Below are positions 10,944-27,737 of a stretch of 28,368 nt of DNA, in pieces (positions within the stretch are counted from its first letter, which is position 1; the number at the start of each line of letters is the position of its first letter). The translations under genes and the position numbers were made by a program. Source of the stretch: an uncultured delta proteobacterium (GTDB taxonomy: Bacteria > Desulfobacterota > Desulfomonilia > UBA1062); the NCBI GenBank assembly GCA_963752595.1, contig CAVVYZ010000028.1:1-28368 (forward strand), written 5' to 3'. The notes beneath the pieces are model-generated. The model searched no databases. It was not told the DNA's origin and saw only the letters and a list, made by a program, of their open reading frames with translations.

Positions 10944-11963
10944 TTAGATATCCCTGTCCACTGCGCTCGCGATGCGCCTGATCCCTTCCATCACGGCCTT
11001 GAACTCTTTCGGGCGGAGCGACTGGGGACCGTCCGAGAGCGCCTGCTCCGGTCTGGGATGGACTTCGATCATGATCCCGTCCGCACCCGCTGCTATTGCC
11101 GCGTAGGCCATCCGCTCCACATACCGTGCATGGCCGGTTCCGTGGGATGGATCCACAATCACCGGGAGGTGGGTCCTCTCCTTGAGCACGGGCACGGCGG
11201 AGAGGTCCAGGGTGTTACGCGTAGCGGTTTCAAAGGTCCTGATCCCCCGCTCGCAGAGGATGACCTGGCTGTTCCCGCCTGAGAGGACATACTCGGCAGA
11301 CATGAGAAACTCCTCGATGTTTGTCGACATGCCCCGTTTGAGGAGTACGGGCTTCTTTGTCTTTCCCACTTCTTTGAGCAGCTGGAAGTTCTGGATGTTC
11401 CTGGCTCCCACCTGAAGGCAGTCGGCATATTCGAGGATCAGCTCTATGCTGGCGATGTCCATGACCTCGGTAATAACCGGCAGGCCGTATTTCTCACGCG
11501 CCTTTGCGAGCAGGATGAGGCCGTCGCTTTTCAGGCCCTGGAACGCATACGGGGAGGTCCTTGGCTTGAAGGCCCCGCCGCGGAGCATGTGCGCGCCGGA
11601 TTCCTTCAGGGCGGATGCAACCTCCATGATCTGCTCTTCATTTTCCACTGCGCAGGGCCCTGCTATGACCGTGAGCTTTCTGCCTCCGATCGTGACTCCG
11701 AGCCCGAGGTCAACGACGGTCGAGTCGGGTTTCGTCTCCCGCGAAGCAAGTTTATATGGTGCAAGAATAGGGATAACCTTTTCTACTCCGGGCTGTGCCT
11801 CAAGACAGGTAAGCCGCTCCTTGCCCCGCTCGTCTCCGATCGCCCCGTACAATACCCTCTCGGATCCCTTGCTCTCGTGAACCCTGTACCCGAATCCCTC
11901 GATGAGCTCCCTGACATGGCTCATCTGCTCCTGTGTTGCTCCCTTTTTCATCGATATGATCAT
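10944..11963 (-). CDS. aroF: DAHP synthase, type I-beta, with N-terminal ferredoxin-like/ACT regulatory domain
   Basis: [50 protein letters not shown] and DPSHGTG motifs. The true start is MIISMKK at 11963, behind a GGAGG SD; the 12044 start in the ORF track runs through the terminator. Confidence 0.97.
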
Positions 11964-12013
11964 TTCTACCTCCATGAAGTATGACGGCCGCCGATGCTCC
12001 CTTGGCCCAGAAT

Positions 12014-12051
12014 AAAAAAGGCCGTGGGAGGAAGAACCACCCACGGCCTTT
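12014..12051 (-). terminator. Intrinsic terminator (attenuator) in the aroF leader
   Basis: Minus strand AAAGGCCGTGGG-TGGTTCTTCCT-CCCACGGCCTTTTTT: a 9-bp GC-rich stem plus U6, about 50 nt upstream of the aroF start. Confidence 0.9.
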
Positions 12052-12095
12052 GTGTTCAGTTTTATTGAACAGATCAGCCCACAGGCGGTCCTCCC
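12030..12095 (-). promoter_or_regulatory. Antiterminator hairpin of the aroF attenuator
   Basis: GGGAGGACCGCCUGUGG (12095-12079) pairs with CCGUGGGUGGUUCUUCC (12046-12030) over 17 contiguous pairs (11 WC + 6 GU). The inner stem is UGUUCA/UGAACA. Confidence 0.75.
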
Positions 12096-12148
12096 CTGAT
12101 AAACCAGAAGTAATAATAACCAAAATACCTGTCAGCGTTTCTATTCAT
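12074..12148 (-). CDS. Aromatic-rich attenuator leader peptide [24 protein letters not shown]
   Basis: ATG AAT AGA AAC GCT GAC AGG TAT TTT GGT TAT TAT TAC TTC TGG TTT ATC AGG GGA GGA CCG CCT GTG GGC TGA; 4 Tyr, 3 Phe and 1 Trp within codons 8-16. Confidence 0.88.
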
Positions 12149-12154
12149 CTTAAA

Positions 12155-12160
12155 AGTATA
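12155..12160 (-). promoter_or_regulatory. -10 box for the leader-aroF transcript
   Basis: TATACT lies 6 nt upstream of the leader ATG. There is no canonically spaced -35 (TTGAAA is 21 nt away). Confidence 0.5.
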
Positions 12161-12319
12161 TATGGCAAAGATCCTTGCGCTTTTCAAGGAGAAAATGGCC
12201 TATTGAAATTATTGTTTCTTTTTATAGTAACATTTCTTATCTGAAAGAACCCCCGTTCTGCAGGCAAGAGAAGTATTTTCAAGAGCTTTTCATTGACAGA
12301 GTAACCCTGCTTTGCTACG

Positions 12320-12471
12320 AGAGGATAACCCTGCTGCGGATTCAAGGGAACCCGGTGAGATTCCGGGACGGGGCCGCCGCTGTGAACGGTGACAGATGCT
12401 CGCAAGAACGACCACTGCGCGAGCGGGAAGGTAAGGGCATCTGGATGATCCGTGAGCCAGAAGACCTATCC
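12320..12471 (+). ncRNA. Cobalamin (B12) riboswitch
   Basis: AAGGGAA-CCCGGTGAGATTCCGGG-ACGGGGCCGCCGCTGTGA...CCACTG...GGGAAGG...GAGCCAGAAGACCT B12-box; GGATA/TATCC closing stem; sits upstream of a TonB receptor; TTGACA at 12293-12298. Confidence 0.93.
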
Positions 12472-12538
12472 GCAAGTAAAGGACTACATCCGCGGGCCTG
12501 GATGGAGACTCCAAGGGAATATACCATGGAGGTGTCCA

Positions 12539-14434
12539 ATGTATTACCGATGCATTACGCTGTTCCCCGTTTTGGTTTCCTGTCTCTTTTCCCTCATCCC
12601 GTCCGCATGGTCAGAGGAAATAGTCATCACCGCCGCGAATTTTGAAGACTCTTCATTAGAGACCGTGAGTGACAAGGCTCCTACATCGTTTACCGAGGAT
12701 GTAAAAATCCGACCGCTCGCATATGGCCTCACCGATACCCTTGGCGCATTGCGGTTGTCCGTTGATGTCGACCTGCCGGACTACGGGGGGACAATCCCGG
12801 TGCCGGTGTCGCTGCGCGGTTCGAATTTCCAGCAGACACTGGTCATGCTCGATGGAATACCGCTCTCCTCTTCGTTGGGGGATATCGTGGACCTTTCCCT
12901 GTATGCAATACCGGAGATCGAACAGATAGAGATCATCAAAGGAAGCAACTCTGCCGTGTACGGACCTTCGGCCATGGGAGGGGTGATCAATATCGTCACC
13001 AGGAAGCCGAGTTTGAGCAATTCGGTTGAGCTTACCTCATCCCAGGGCAGCTATGGGTACAACCTCTATAATCTCCTCTTAAATGCAGAAGGAGGAGGCC
13101 AGGGCTTCATGCTCGATATTATCCGGAGCTGGGCGGAAAACGATTACCTCTACGAGAAAGAAGACGGCACAGAAGCCCGGAGAGAAAACAACGATTCCGA
13201 TACGACCTCGCTCCTCACGAAACTCCTGCTGGACCTCGGCGGATGGGATACGACACTTTCAGGAAGCATGTCCGAGCAGCTTCTCGGTTCTCCCGGAAGT
13301 GAAGGAAGCATAGGGATGCTCACGCCGACCGATGAGGTGGATACGCATCAGTACCTGTTTGCACTCAGCACAGCCAGAAGCTTCGGCCCTGATCAGGCCA
13401 TCGAGATCAAAGCCTCCAGGCTGCATAACCGCGTCCACAACCTGACATTCTTTTCAGGAGACGTCTGGTCCAAGCTGACGAGCGATTATGCAGACATGAC
13501 ATATGTCAGAAAAATAGGGATCCTGGATGTGCGGCCCGGCATTGCCCTGCGGAGGGAACGGATAGCAAGCGACGATTACGGCATTCACTCCCGATCGACA
13601 GCCTCAGCAATCATAAGCTCTGTCCTGGACCTCGATCCGGTCCTTCTCTCTCTTACCGCAAGGCGCGACCGGAGCTCTGCTTTTGACGGGCAATGGACAT
13701 ACCACAGCGGTGCCCTCTGGAGGGTCATGCCCCACTTCAATCTCCAGGCAAACGTCGGTACCGGATACCATGAGCCTACCATGGGCCATCTCTATACCCC
13801 GTCGTCCTGGTATACCTTCATATCAAATACTGATCTTAAGCCCGAGAAATCGTTGAGTTTCGATTTTGGGCCGGTGGTTGAATACACAACGTTCGGCATG
13901 GGCGCAAGCTACTTTGTCACCAGGTACGAGGATTTGATCAAAATGGCCTTCCCGGCGCCCAATACGTTCACCTACACCAATGTCGACAAAGCCCGTGCCG
14001 CAGGGATCGAGGTCTTTACCTGGATAAAGCCCATAGAATCCGTCAAGCTCTCGGCTAATTACGTATTCAACCAGTTCAGGTACGCCGGCGGCGAGTTCGA
14101 AAGCAAGACCATCAGACTCAAACCAAGGCAGGTTTTTAGCCTTAGAAGTGATTATCTCCCGGTCATTTCGGGCAGGCATACTGATATCTTCCTGGCCTAC
14201 CAGTTCAGAGAGGGAGTCTATAAGGACGATGCCAACACGGAAAAGACCGGGGACAGAAACATCCTCGACACCGGTGTTTCCCTGGAAGTGTCCAAACATG
14301 CAGCCATAGCCTTCAAGGTAAACAACCTGTTCAACGATACCTCGGTCGAATTCGAAGACAAATCCGAATGGGGAACCTTCTGGTACCCGGTAGCCGGAAG
14401 GACATACCGCGGTTCCATCCAGCTGAGCTTCTAG
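12539..14434 (+). CDS. btuB: TonB-dependent outer-membrane receptor, BtuB-like (cobamide uptake)
   Basis: GGAGG SD before ATG 12539; signal peptide; TonB-box-like EEIVITA; plug motifs SLRGS..QQTLVMLDGIP and IEIIKGSNSAVYGPSAMGGVINIVT; C-terminal Phe; B12 riboswitch upstream. Confidence 0.88.
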   Translation: MYYRCITLFPVLVSCLFSLIPSAWSEEIVITAANFEDSSLETVSDKAPTSFTEDVKIRPLAYGLTDTLGALRLSVDVDLPDYGGTIPVPVSLRGSNFQQTLVMLDGIPLSSSLGDIVDLSLYAIPEIEQIEIIKGSNSAVYGPSAMGGVINIVTRKPSLSNSVELTSSQGSYGYNLYNLLLNAEGGGQGFMLDIIRSWAENDYLYEKEDGTEARRENNDSDTTSLLTKLLLDLGGWDTTLSGSMSEQLLGSPGSEGSIGMLTPTDEVDTHQYLFALSTARSFGPDQAIEIKASRLHNRVHNLTFFSGDVWSKLTSDYADMTYVRKIGILDVRPGIALRRERIASDDYGIHSRSTASAIISSVLDLDPVLLSLTARRDRSSAFDGQWTYHSGALWRVMPHFNLQANVGTGYHEPTMGHLYTPSSWYTFISNTDLKPEKSLSFDFGPVVEYTTFGMGASYFVTRYEDLIKMAFPAPNTFTYTNVDKARAAGIEVFTWIKPIESVKLSANYVFNQFRYAGGEFESKTIRLKPRQVFSLRSDYLPVISGRHTDIFLAYQFREGVYKDDANTEKTGDRNILDTGVSLEVSKHAAIAFKVNNLFNDTSVEFEDKSEWGTFWYPVAGRTYRGSIQLSF

Positions 14435-14570: not shown

Positions 14571-15710
14571 ATGCTCACATTTTATACCGCCGGAGAGTCC
14601 CATGGCAGGGGAGTATTCGCCTTTCTCGACGGCATCCCTGCAGGATTGCAGGTGGACAGGGATACTATCGATGCCGACCTTGCCCGCCGCCAGAAGGGCT
14701 ACGGCAGGGGCGGCAGGATGACGATCGAGAAGGACACCGTGGACGTGCTCTCCGGCATCAGGGGAGGAATTACGCTCGGCAGCTCCGGTCATGCTCGCGG
14801 TGTGGAACAGGGACTTTGAGAAACTGGAACGAGATACATGGACCCCTGGAATATCGAGCCGGGGAAAGAGCTCTATACCCCGAGGCCGGGCCATGCCGAC
14901 CTGGCAGGGGCCGTACGGTTCGGGCATACCGATCTCAGGAACGTCCTCGAGCGCTCCAGCGCTCGGGAAACCGCAGGCAGGGTCGCGGCAGGGGGTCTGC
15001 TCAGGTCTCTGCTTGCCGCTCTCGGCATCGAAGTCTGCTCCTGGGTACTGCGCATCGGCCGGGCCCATTATGAAGGCCCTTTCGACCGGGCTTCAAGGAT
15101 GCTTCGAGCGTGTTCTGCCCTGATCCGGAAGCGACCGAGGCCATGGAGAAAGCAGATCGACGAGGTCAAAGAGCAGCGGCGACACCATCGGCGGCGAATT
15201 CAAGGTCGTGCTTACGGGGCTGCCTGCAGGCATCGGGTCGTACACCCAGTGGGACCAGCGCCTCGATACTCTGGTAGCCGCGCATCTCATGTCCATCCCC
15301 GGCATCAAGGCGGTGCAGATCGGCAAGGGAGTCGAATGCGCAGAGATTCCCGGCTCGAAGCTCCATGACGAGATCCTCCCCGGTACGCCCAAGACGAGAA
15401 CTTCAAACAATGCGGGCGGCATGGAAGGAGGCATATCGAATGGTGAGCCCATCGAGGTGCGCTGCACCATGAAGCCCATCCCCACCTTGAGCAAGGGCCT
15501 GCAAATCGGTCGACATCCGGGACGGCTCACCTGCACAGGCCCAGTATGAGCGCTCGGACTATTGCGCCGTGCCTGCCGCCTCGGTCGTGGGGGAGGCAAT
15601 GGCTGATCATCGCGGTCTCAGAAGCGATCCTTGCAGAGCTTCGGCCTTCCGGACATGGGCTCGCTGAAGCAGGCCTTTGAAAATCACCGGAAGGCTGGGA
15701 GGCCCTATGA
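14571..15710 (+). CDS. aroC: Chorismate synthase (several frameshifts; end approximate)
   Basis: [65 protein letters not shown] and MKPIPT motifs. Confidence 0.95.
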
Positions 15711-17266
15711 TCTTTCTCACCGGATTCATGGGCTCCGGCAAATCGACCGTGGGGGCGAGGCTGGCTACGCTCCTGGAATGCCTTTCATCGGATCTGGATG
15801 CCGTGATCAGCAAAAACGCCGGAACCTCCATACCCGATATCTTCCGCTGTGCAGGCGAGGAGGCCTTCCGGTTCCTGGAGCGCAAGGCCCTGCTCGATAT
15901 CGCGCCGCGGGCAAGCCGGGCGTGATCGCCACAGGCGGGGGACTGCCGGTCAATCCTGCCAACCGGAAGATTATGAAGGCCTCGGCGCTCATCGTGCACC
16001 TCAGAGCCATCCTTCGAGACCATCATGAATCGCATCCCCGACGATCAGAGCAGGCCTTTGTGGAACAGTGACTCCCGCGCCTCTTTCGAATCGAGGAAGG
16101 ATGCGTACGGCGATGCGGACCTCATCGTCGACACCGATACGAAGACCGTAGAGCAGATTGCCGGGCGAGATCTTCGCAGCCGTTTCAGGGTATGTGCAGC
16201 CCACCGGGGTCATCCTGCCGGACAGCCCTTATCCGGTCTATATCGGGAAAGGCATTTTCAGGGATATCCGGTCCCTGATAAGCGCCACACTGCTCCCGAA
16301 GGCCTGTTTGTCCTTGTGGATGAAAATGTCGTGAAACATCACGGAGGGCTCATCGAAAGGCGCCTCGGCATACAGCCGCATTTCATGATGACTGTTCCGT
16401 CCGGAGAGGAATCGAAGTCCTCCGCCTTCCTGAATAAGGTTCTCGAGGAGATGTTCTCCCGCCGGGTGAACCGCCAGTGGGTGTGCCTGGCAATCGGCAG
16501 GAGGGGTGACCGGCGATCTTGCCGGCTTTGCGGCGAGCATCTACATGCGGGGAATCCCGGTCATCCAGGCTGCCACGACACTGCTGTCCCAGATCGATTC
16601 CAGCATCGGCGGCAAGACCGGCATCAACAACGAATTCGGCAAAAATCTCATCGGCTCTTTCCTTCAGCCGCTCTTCGTCCTGTGCGACATGGATTTCCTC
16701 GCCACCCTGGATATGCCCAGATAAAAAGCGCCATGGCAGAGGTGATCAAGTACGGCATCATCATGGACAGCACCCTCTTCGAATACATCGAAAACAGGGC
16801 TGCCATCGATTATGAAAAGATCGTGCGCATGTGCGCCCGGGACAAGGCCCGGGTCGTAAGCGAAGATGAGAGGGAAGGGGGCTTAAGGAGAATCCTCAAT
16901 TTCGGCCATACCCTGGGCCATGCGGTCGAGAAGAGCACGGCTATACCATTCTCCATGGAGAGGCCGTAGCACTGGGCATGGTGTTTGCCGCATGGCTTTC
17001 CTTAAGCAGGGGGATATTCTTCCCGACCCGATTTCGACCGTATCAGAAGTGTTATAGACAGAGAAGGGATTATCCCTGTTTCCTTACGGCTGCCGAGCCC
17101 CCGGGAGGCGGCAGAGGCCATGTCCATGGACAAGAAGGGCGAGGGCAGGGCTATCCACTTTGTGTTGACACCGTCCATAGGGGATGTTAGCGTACAAAAA
17201 CTTTCTGAAATCGTAGTATTGGAAGCTTACAAAGGATTTGCTGATGGATATGCTAAAGGCCTTTGA
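15707..17266 (+). CDS. aroKB: Shikimate kinase / 3-dehydroquinate synthase, apparently fused (frameshifted)
   Basis: AroK part: [34 protein letters not shown]. AroB part: [85 protein letters not shown]; stop TGA at 17264-17266. Confidence 0.85.
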
Positions 17267-17759
17267 GCGAGGCGATTTCCTTCAGATCATTGAGTCTGCC
17301 GATAAAGCAAGCGGCCCTGAAGATCAGCTCCTGCTGGGGATCTCCCTCTATAAGCTCGGGAAGCACCGGGATGCCATGAAGGTATTTCTGAAGCTCTCAG
17401 ATACCGTCAGGGACCTTGCCCAGGTCTTTTACTACATGGCTCTCATCCATAAAGAAAAGGGCGATATGGAGTCGGCGCGCTCCTGCATCGAACACTATAC
17501 CCACTTCTATACGGATGATGAGGAAGCCCTTGAGATCCTGGAATCCGGCCGTGAGCAGCCCCCGCTCGTGAGCGTGCCCTCGCTGGAGCTGGCAAAGGTC
17601 TATGCGGCTCAGGGGCACTTCGCTCAGTCCCTCGAAATATTCGTAAACCTGCTGGAGGAATCGCCGTCGGATCCCGATGTTCGGAAAGAAGCCGAGCGGG
17701 TCCAGACCATGCACGTCGATCAAAACCCTGGAACGATGGCTGGAAAGGATGAAAAATGA
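17244..17759 (+). CDS. Tetratricopeptide-repeat protein
   Basis: TPR-like helices [31 protein letters not shown] and [18 protein letters not shown]; probable frameshift near the 3' end. Confidence 0.8.
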
Positions 17760-18202
17760 AAGTACTGATGATCAACGGACCCAACCTGAACCTTCTGGGC
17801 ACAAGGGAAAAGGTCATTTATGGTACGGCCTCCCTTTCCGATATCGAACAGACCGCCCGGGAGAAGGCCAAGTCCCTCGGGCTGGAGCTCACCGCATTCC
17901 AGTCGAACCACGAGGGGGACATCATAGATAAGATCCATTCCGCGCGCGGCCTCGGGATAAGCTGCATCCTCATCAATCCCGGGGGGTATACGCATACGTC
18001 GGTGGCCATCCGCGATGCCCTGCTCGCCGTGGACATACCGTTCATAGAGGTGCACATCAGCAACGTATCTGCCAGAGAGCCCTTCAGGCAGAAGGACCTG
18101 TTCTCCGACATCGCCATAGGAACCATCTCAGGGCTCGGGACCCTTGGCTATATCCTTGCATTAGAGGCACTGCATGAATTACTCGGATCAAAGGCTCGCT
18201 AA
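17756..18202 (+). CDS. aroQ: Type II 3-dehydroquinate dehydratase
   Basis: [36 protein letters not shown] and EVHISN..RE.FR motifs. Confidence 0.97.
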
Positions 18203-19244
18203 AGCGAGAACATATCTTAAAGGGCTCGACGCCATCCTCCTCTCCTCGCGGACCAATGTGACCTATGTAAGCGGGTATACGGGTTCCGATGCGGTCGCGG
18301 TGTTTACCGACTCATCCGCCGACCTGTTCGTCGACTCCCGCAACACGCTGCAGGCCAAGGAAGAAGCCAACGTGGGCGTGCATGAGCTAAGAAAGAGGTG
18401 GGAAGAGATCTACGAACACCTGACCGGCCAGGGTGTCAAAACCCTTGGCATAGAATCCAATGTCATCGATCTGGATTCCTTCCTCCAGATGAAGGACCTG
18501 TTCAAAGAAATCGAGATGACGCCCATGGGCGGCCAGCTCAAATACCTGAGAAGCATAAAAGATCCGGGAGAGGTCGCCCTGATAAGCGAAGCGTCCCGTA
18601 TCGCCGAGCAGGCGGTAAACGAGGTGCTGGCTGCGGGCATCATCGGCCGGAAAGAAATTGATGTTGCCTTCGAGCTTGAGTGCGGAATGCGCCGGCTCGG
18701 GGCGAGCGGACCGTCCTTCGAGACCATCGTTGCCTCGGGTCCCCGGTCTGCTATGCCCCACGGAGCAGCCTCGGACAGGATTATCCGTGAGACGAACCGG
18801 TGGTGTTCGATTTCGGCGCAGCCTACAAGGGATATGCCTCCGACCAGACCATCACCGTATACACGGGAAAACCCGATAAAGAATTCACGGACGTGTACAA
18901 CCACGTGAGAAAAGCCCAGGAATCGGCCATGAGCGCCGTGAGCAAAGGCATCAAAGCAACGCTGCCGGACAAGGCTGCACGTGACTATCTCGAATCGGTC
19001 GGGCTTGCGCAATACTTCGGCCACGGCCTCGGCCACGGGGTGGGCATGGAGGTACACGAGATGCCTACGGTCTCCTACTCTCTCAAAGGATATCCTGGAG
19101 AACGGCATGGTGTTCACCATCGAGCCGGGCGTATATCTGCCCGGAAAATTCGGGGTGAGGATCGAAGATATGGTCCTGATCACAGATAATTCTTGCAAGC
19201 AGATTACAAAGCTTGATAAAGATGCCATAAAAGTAATAAATTAG
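18174..19244 (+). CDS. Xaa-Pro aminopeptidase (M24B), two frameshifts
   Basis: Creatinase-like N-domain; [48 protein letters not shown] and [14 protein letters not shown] motifs; usual position between aroQ and efp. Confidence 0.92.
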
Positions 19245-19255
19245 GAGACTTTACC

Positions 19256-19819
19256 ATGCAGTACTCAACCGCACAGTTTCGCAAAGGCTTGAAGATCGAG
19301 ATCGCCGGAGAACCGTTGACCATCGTGGACTTCCAGCATGTCAAACCGGGCAAGGGCGGCGCGTTTGTGCGCACCAAGATGAAGAGTCTCATTTCCGGCA
19401 ACACCCTGGAGAAGACCTTCCGGTCCGGCGAAAAAGTGGATGTGCCGAATCTCGAAGAAAAGACCATGTCATTCCTGTACCAGGATGAGTCAGGCTACTG
19501 GTTCATGGACAGCCGGACCTATGATCAGATGAACCTGAAGGAAGACAACATCTCGGAGGCCATGGGGTATCTCAAGGAGAACATAGAGGTGGGGATCCTC
19601 TTTCACAACGACAAACCGATCGGCATCGACCTGCCCATGTTCATGGAGCTTGCCGTGGCCGAAACAGATCCCGGCGTCCGCGGGAACACTGCATCAGGAG
19701 GGTCGAAACCTGCAAAGCTCGAAACAGGCAAGACAATCCAGGTGCCCCTTTTCATCAACGAAGGAGATATCGTCAAGGTAGACACCAGAACTGACGAATA
19801 TATTGAGAGAGTGAGCTAG
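19256..19819 (+). CDS. efp: Elongation factor P
   Basis: HVKPGKGGAFVRTK loop and VPLFINEGD..KVDTR; intact 187 aa. Confidence 0.98.
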   Translation: MQYSTAQFRKGLKIEIAGEPLTIVDFQHVKPGKGGAFVRTKMKSLISGNTLEKTFRSGEKVDVPNLEEKTMSFLYQDESGYWFMDSRTYDQMNLKEDNISEAMGYLKENIEVGILFHNDKPIGIDLPMFMELAVAETDPGVRGNTASGGSKPAKLETGKTIQVPLFINEGDIVKVDTRTDEYIERVS

Positions 19820-20235
<416 letters not shown>

Positions 20236-20239
<4 letters not shown>

Positions 20240-27662: not shown

Positions 27663-27737
27663 GGGCCGCTAGCTCAGGGGGAGAGCGCTACCTTCACACG
27701 GTAGAAGTCGAAGGTTCAAATCCTTCGCGGCCCACCA
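27663..27737 (+). tRNA. tRNA-Val (anticodon CAC)
   Basis: GGGCCGC/GCGGCCC acceptor stem; AGCTCAG D-arm; CTACC-TTCACAC-GGTAG anticodon arm; GAAGG-TTCAAAT-CCTTC T-arm; encoded CCA. Confidence 0.98.

Follow-up and report, generated by a model that had tools for sequence, protein, structure and literature searches.

Is the DAHP synthase gene aroF of an uncultured delta proteobacterium controlled by a leader peptide that reads the supply of aromatic amino acids and, if so, of how many of them? The question arises from a short upstream open reading frame (uORF), rich in aromatic codons, that precedes aroF on the minus strand of a 28,368-nucleotide stretch of DNA (hereafter the window). The window is contig C28 of an assembly that is 84% complete and frameshift-rich, with a contamination of 6.8%. 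Our comparisons and folding models point to transcription attenuation of the classical, ribosome-mediated type, with a Phe-, Tyr- and Trp-rich uORF that would control DAHP synthase; we assign this reading a probability of roughly 0.88.

An aromatic uORF and a terminator precede a DAHP synthase gene

An earlier note, made from the letters of this DNA, had proposed a 24-codon uORF dense in aromatic codons, followed by an intrinsic terminator at 12051-12014 and by a DAHP synthase gene, and all three elements were borne out (Table 1). The uORF runs from an ATG at 12148 to a TGA at 12076-12074, and its codons 8-16 comprise four Tyr, three Phe and one Trp codon, as claimed, plus one Gly codon. It ranks first among the 45,019 short ATG ORFs of the genome and is the only one with eight aromatic codons in nine; a short uORF with such a run of codons for end products of the pathway is typical of amino-acid attenuators. 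The uORF is separated from the structural gene by a G+C-rich hairpin (12051-12020, -26.6 kcal/mol) followed by a U6 tract (12019-12014). A simple consensus scanner, run on the window and on locus L007, called neither a promoter nor the aroF-leader terminator; in our reading it missed the terminator because the loop is about 11 nt long and the scanner is limited to loops of 3-8 nt. The aroF product matches PRK08673 (502.9 bits, cut-off 335) and TIGR01361 (400.3 bits) in NCBIfam, and contains the Pfam domains PF00793 and, at its N-terminus, the ferredoxin-like PF18152.

Table 1. Features of the aroF leader and of the gene behind it, in positions of the window.
Feature	Position	Strand	Basis
Predicted -35 hexamer TTGAAA	12182..12187	-	Sequence; TTG hexamer kept in family
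Predicted -10 region CATATATACT	12155..12164	-	Sequence
Leader-peptide uORF, 24 codons + stop	12074..12148	-	Sequence; kept in relatives
Segment 1 (codons 5-8), partner of 12086-12077 in predicted 1:2 pause/anti-antiterminator hairpin	12127..12136	-	MFE fold, pair counts
Control codons 8-16 (Y F G Y Y Y F W F)	12101..12127	-	Top score in genome; Trp retention
Segment 2 (codons 18-24 + first stop base), predicted antiterminator 5' strand	12076..12096	-	Folds, pair counts, fixed synonymous codons
Small hairpin inside antiterminator loop	12053..12071	-	Folds; weak conservation by eye in alignment
Segment 3, terminator 5' arm + loop; also antiterminator 3' strand	12029..12051	-	Folds, pair counts
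Segment 4 + U6 tract, terminator 3' arm	12014..12028	-	Pair counts, RNAalifold consensus
aroF Shine-Dalgarno sequence GGAGGT	11968..11973	-	Sequence; duplex -10.6 kcal/mol
Regulated gene: type Iβ DAHP synthase (aroF-like), 339 aa, N-terminal ferredoxin-like regulatory domain	10944..11963	-	NCBIfam, Pfam

Close 3' of aroF, on the same strand (10902-9630), are genes for a 176-aa protein that matched nothing in Pfam or NCBIfam, for an FmdB zinc-ribbon protein and moaC; no clear terminator separates aroF from the first of them. Divergent from the leader, a cobalamin riboswitch (12306-12487, plus strand, 81.2 bits) precedes a gene for a BtuB-like TonB-dependent receptor (12539-14434, plus strand). 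The plus strand continues at 14571-20239 with aroC, likely aroK, aroB, a TPR protein gene, aroQ, a PepQ-like peptidase gene, efp and likely accB. Several of these genes are split by frameshifts, like many in the assembly, which suggests read errors. No leader was evident by eye 5' of aroC. A tRNA gene lies at 27663-27734 (plus strand).

The leader transcript probably starts at the uORF

A TTG hexamer is found 35-42 nt 5' of the uORF ATG in 22/22 family leaders, and we predict that transcription starts at the ATG or within about 3 nt of it. In 20/22 family leaders the uORF has a Shine-Dalgarno duplex weaker than -4 kcal/mol, and that at aroF lies between -9.3 and -11.3 kcal/mol in 20/22. Given the promoter spacing, the missing Shine-Dalgarno match at the uORF and the strong one at aroF, the uORF is probably leaderless.

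Alternative foldings suggest a kinetic switch

The 189-nt leader folds with a z-score of -3.55. In nascent RNA folded up to the terminator 3' arm, 12096-12076 paired with 12049-12029 to form an antiterminator, with an energy of -37 kcal/mol for a ribosome at codons 5-10, -32 kcal/mol at Trp15 and -27 kcal/mol at Phe16; this structure was gone once the ribosome had passed codon 19. Folding and pair counts agree that the antiterminator overlaps the terminator 5' arm, is free while the ribosome is on the control codons and is covered when it is at the stop codon. Untranslated RNA alternatively pairs 12136-12127 with 12086-12077, a predicted pause or anti-antiterminator hairpin, and the aroF leader shows in this way the 1:2, 2:3, 3:4 arrangement of classical attenuators, its four segments forming pairings that exclude one another. 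At equilibrium, the full-length leader had a terminator probability of at least 0.85 at nearly every ribosome position, with 0.34 at Phe14. Because the terminator is favored almost everywhere at equilibrium, the switch would have to be kinetic; kinetic behavior was represented solely by truncating the RNA.

We propose the following course of events, which follows the general attenuation mechanism as laid out in the available text of PMC1183508 and PMC11802643. Transcription would begin close to the uORF ATG; polymerase would then pause at the 1:2 hairpin until a ribosome has loaded. In a shortage of Phe-, Tyr- or Trp-tRNA the ribosome would stall within codons 8-16, covering segment 1 and leaving segment 2 free, the 2:3 antiterminator would form first and aroF would be transcribed. 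With all three tRNAs charged, the ribosome would reach the stop codon and lie over segment 2, and the 3:4 terminator would end the transcript near 12014. The main signal would come from Phe and Tyr, with seven codons, and a weaker one from the single Trp codon.

The leader and its helices are conserved among relatives

Forty relative genomes were searched, and loci were obtained from 29 of them; the close relatives are in records labeled Desulfomonilia or Deltaproteobacteria. An aromatic uORF and a hairpin were found at 27 of the 29 loci and also at L021; L017 has no upstream DNA, so the two elements are present at 28/28 loci with upstream DNA.

Consensus folding of the leaders with RNAalifold recovered the terminator alone, and the alternative helices were therefore counted separately in an alignment of 23 family leaders. 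In the 2:3 antiterminator, 95.2% of cells were paired, vs 33-49% when the strands were slid against each other; 98.2% were paired in the 3:4 terminator and 81.3% in the 1:2 hairpin (33-40% when slid). Changes on both sides of a pair occurred in nine cells of the antiterminator (as many in 0/500 shuffles), spread over four pairs (reached by 33/500), in five cells and two pairs of the terminator (0/500 as high) and in four cells and three pairs of the 1:2 hairpin (5/500 as high), but relatedness among the aligned sequences makes the shuffles overstate significance, and the covariation is modest.

In the folding model, when the ribosome stood at the first aromatic codon, the antiterminator captured seven to nine of the nine terminator-arm bases in 23/23 leaders; when it stood at the stop codon, 0/9 were captured in all 23. 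A covariance model of the family scored above 90 bits in 43/52 family genomes, training sequences included, and 13-44 bits on the leaders of other families, with many of the latter matches on the reverse strand. Sixteen loci from the covariance search were examined and 13 parsed; three of these repeated training sequences, and all ten new leaders hold Phe, Tyr and Trp codons.

Leaders are widespread and, in a sample of the phylum, lie at operon-leading DAHP synthase genes

A set of 80 named DAHP synthase loci was reduced to 75 by dropping five with short upstream DNA. At 37 of the 75 (four of which duplicate earlier loci), a uORF with at least five aromatic codons in nine was present; these came from Syntrophales, Smithellaceae, Desulfuromonadales, Nitrospirota, Pirellulales and a few Firmicutes records. 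As a control for position in the operon we used a sample of the phylum, in which 90 of about 150 listed matches were examined and two dropped for short upstream DNA. A leader with a terminator preceded 31/58 operon-leading genes vs 0/30 operon-internal ones. Together with the conservation and the covarying antiterminator, this operon-position control strongly supports the earlier proposal that DAHP synthase is under attenuator control.

Codons for all of Phe, Tyr and Trp occur in 74 of 91 distinct leaders. To avoid circularity, leaders were reselected on Phe and Tyr alone (n=90). In this wider set a stalled ribosome led to capture of the terminator arm in 85/90, vs 49% in shuffles, and the full strict switch test was passed by 60/90 and failed by 30/90.

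Several variants were seen. A single leader is followed by a tandem of two terminator-like hairpins at L039, L041, L043-L047, L050, L051, L055, L057, L060 and L061, which belong to Syntrophales, Desulfuromonadales, Nitrospirota and related records. Other DAHP synthase copies at L199, L148 and L171 have leaders of an all-Trp type, MLNRNINNRYWWWRWWRMEGSAVL, or of all-Phe types, hinting at paralogues specialized per amino acid. The DAHP synthases behind the leaders of L027-L030, L150, L152, L177, L193 and L194 match the query from residue 65-94 and may lack the N-terminal regulatory domain. Three Syntrophomonas loci (L069, L075, L077) have a very short Trp-Trp-Glu-Tyr uORF and a terminator upstream of DAHP synthase, below our threshold.

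Leader codons elsewhere in the genome track downstream function

Within the genome, an aromatic uORF with a terminator precedes three of 2,859 operon-leading ORFs, among them the aroF leader and one Phe leader. The latter is purely Phe, MKNITISTSFFFFFV (G000:C9:354348-354492, plus strand; L209:1501-1645), has a strong hairpin with a U tract and stands before the gene for a 403-aa binding protein of the Peripla_BP_6 (LivJ-like) type. It likely subjects an amino-acid ABC transporter to attenuation by Phe, in which case the predicted substrate would be Phe. A trpL-like pure-Trp leader, MNTYLPPFTILTTRWWWRIRRDGAVGGLP, with a hairpin and U tract, precedes a frameshifted trpE (G000:C30:87164, plus strand) and, with a TTGACA about 36 nt upstream, is probably leaderless too. 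The pure-Trp leader at trpE and the pure-Phe leader at the binding protein suggest that leader codons track the function encoded downstream.

A second copy of the aromatic leader (G000:C23:22915, minus strand, 117 bits) lies before a frameshifted DAHP synthase copy. It has GGG at the position where relatives have TGG, and so is without Trp; it may be a paralogue, contamination of the bin (6.8%) or a read error. No aromatic leader was found at the third DAHP synthase paralogue (G000:C1:134821) or at pheA (G000:C31:18815).

Does the leader respond to tryptophan?

Codons for Phe, Tyr and Trp are all maintained in the control zone, and we infer that the aroF leader would respond to all three aromatic amino acids, a reading backed by the selection acting on the Trp codon. 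Alternatively, the attenuator might sense just Phe, or Phe and Tyr, with the Trp codon a passenger or of negligible effect. The single Trp codon stands against seven for Phe and Tyr, it is missing from two of the 23 family leaders (L006 and L012) and from 20/90 of the wider set selected on Phe and Tyr only, and the genome already has a Trp leader at trpE. There is also a precedent in Corynebacterium glutamicum, where, in the available text of PMC11802643, the aroR leader answered to Phe limitation and not to Tyr limitation despite its Tyr codon. Modeling, according to the accessible part of PMC1183508, shows that the sensitivity of an attenuator drops when regulatory codons make up a small share of the control region. 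The precedent and the modeling both call for caution on the Trp input.

Against a sensor of Phe and Tyr alone, Trp is present in the other 70 of the 90 leaders, and among the 520 codons other than Phe and Tyr in these tracts, which were chosen regardless of Trp, TGG occurs 81 times and the compositionally similar TGC and TGT together eight times, even though a rough six-frame estimate makes Cys commoner than Trp in long ORFs of the genome (1.6% vs 1.0%). The Trp column lies outside every counted helix. In the folding model, stalling at the Trp codon leaves the antiterminator free, and the terminator arm was captured in 21/21 Trp-bearing family leaders. We consider sensing restricted to Phe, or to Phe and Tyr, unlikely, if still worth serious attention.

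The end of the peptide might hint at a different mechanism, in which a C-terminal PPVG-stop would act as a TnaC-like nascent-peptide arrest, responding to a free aromatic amino acid or to EF-P-dependent pausing and not to tRNA charging. PPVG is nearly invariant across the family, ribosomes are known to be slow at Pro-Pro and Pro-stop, and efp lies within the window, though probably by chance as part of the usual aroQ-efp cluster. However, the motif is fixed at the codon level: at position -3, CCT is the Pro codon in 22/22 cases against a background of about 22%, and GGC and TGA are found in 21/23 and 22/23 family leaders, respectively. Two leaders, L019 (LPVG) and L020 (LSVG), alter the residues yet preserve the pairing, and the C-termini of leaders in other families are unrelated. 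Fixation at the codon level and residue swaps that keep the pairing argue for a constraint on the RNA over a peptide arrest signal, which we regard as very improbable.

Least credible of all is that the hairpin terminates constitutively or acts as an RNA- or protein-binding switch beside an incidental U-rich frame, as the terminator-only consensus fold and a match to the Trp repressor family elsewhere in the genome (PF01371, 52 bits; G000:C2:252303-252512, plus strand) might suggest, since the uORF frame is preserved through indels in 23/23 aligned leaders, U is kept at first codon positions while third positions vary, UNN codons for Ser, Cys and Leu are rare, TRAP was not found in the 84%-complete genome and no Rfam family matches the leader at gathering score.

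What a three-way leader would mean

Taking the ribosome-mediated attenuator as the preferred reading, we lean, at slightly better than even odds, toward the aroF leader belonging to a class of genuinely trivalent attenuators, widespread but for the most part unannotated, that act on type Iβ DAHP synthase and candidates for which were encountered in records of Desulfomonilia, Syntrophales/Smithellaceae, Desulfuromonadales, Nitrospirota and Pirellulales. If so, a shortage of any one of Phe, Tyr and Trp would derepress entry to the shikimate pathway through a single run of codons. The selected Trp codon would then supply a Trp input that would be absent from the enzyme's ferredoxin-like domain; in Thermotoga the enzyme with this domain is inhibited by Tyr and Phe. 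Such leaders likely control entry into aromatic amino-acid synthesis in a large group of mostly uncultured anaerobes, and their description supplies a missing annotation, the leader escaping every Rfam family. As a compact RNA switch, the leader comes with natural variants (without Trp, all Phe, all Trp) that are built-in controls for the three-tRNA question. Were derepression by each of the amino acids demonstrated, the leader would stand as an experimentally tested attenuator with three aromatic inputs, and as the representative of a widespread class.

Comparison with known systems

No Rfam family matched the leader at gathering score, and no leader family was found in 20 related loci. Weak matches by E-value were rejected as chance, including Phe_leader (RF01859; 16.9 bits, cut-off 55) and the trpB motif (RF04312; 21.9 bits, cut-off 59), the latter described from Firmicutes and Fusobacteria in the available text of PMC11109978. 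Our literature search found no report of such a leader in Desulfobacterota, although comparative-genomics listings may contain one, and no experimental demonstration of a three-aromatic attenuator. The leader is not described in the available parts of PMC1173090, PMC2965389, PMC4833913, PMC3082878 and PMC8079986, and the PMC8632094 supplement holds no match. The novelty suggested in the earlier note stands in part: no report was found for the lineage, but a DAHP synthase leader with Phe, Tyr and Trp was already listed for Deinococcus deserti (PMC4007540, as far as its accessible text goes).

This peptide, Deide_18471 (MKLRSAFFYWFGVPRA), is a putative DAHP synthase leader peptide with a transcription start at its ATG. 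Compared by description, it resembles the aroF leader in being leaderless, in lying 5' of a DAHP synthase gene and in containing Phe, Tyr and Trp among its 16 residues, and its reads were far above those of the DAHP synthase gene. It differs in belonging to another phylum and in being listed, in the part of PMC4007540 at hand, without RNA structure, conservation analysis or test.

Other DAHP synthase leaders are less alike. The aroR-aroF pair of C. glutamicum, first noted as a leader-peptide attenuator in PMC4046766 (available text), was tested by Neshat et al. 2014, who supported control by ribosome stalling, according to the accessible part of PMC11802643. By description it is, like the aroF leader, a leader-peptide attenuator of a DAHP synthase gene, but it reads Phe-Tyr-Phe without Trp, whereas the leader studied here has eight aromatic codons of three kinds. 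The Acholeplasma uORFC-13-1 motif also combines a uORF and an intrinsic terminator 5' of aroF, and attenuation was proposed for it; it differs in having a ribosome-binding site and at least one Phe codon, with Tyr and Trp unmentioned in the available text of PMC8632094. In Table 7 of PMC1173090, as far as accessible, putative attenuators are placed before aroA-Iβ operons, for example in Thermus thermophilus, without leader peptides. The DAHP synthase genes of Escherichia coli are under TyrR and TrpR (PMC11802643, available text).

In its logic the aroF leader also resembles the leaders trpL, pheL, thrL and ilvL of E. coli, with which it has the four-segment 1:2, 2:3, 3:4 design in common. In trpL and pheL there are runs of the cognate codon, and thrL and ilvL are multivalent and stand at pathway entry points. 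These uORFs are leadered, whereas the aroF uORF is probably leaderless. The mechanism of the aroF leader is a textbook one, and what it adds to these systems is breadth and structural support rather than a new principle.
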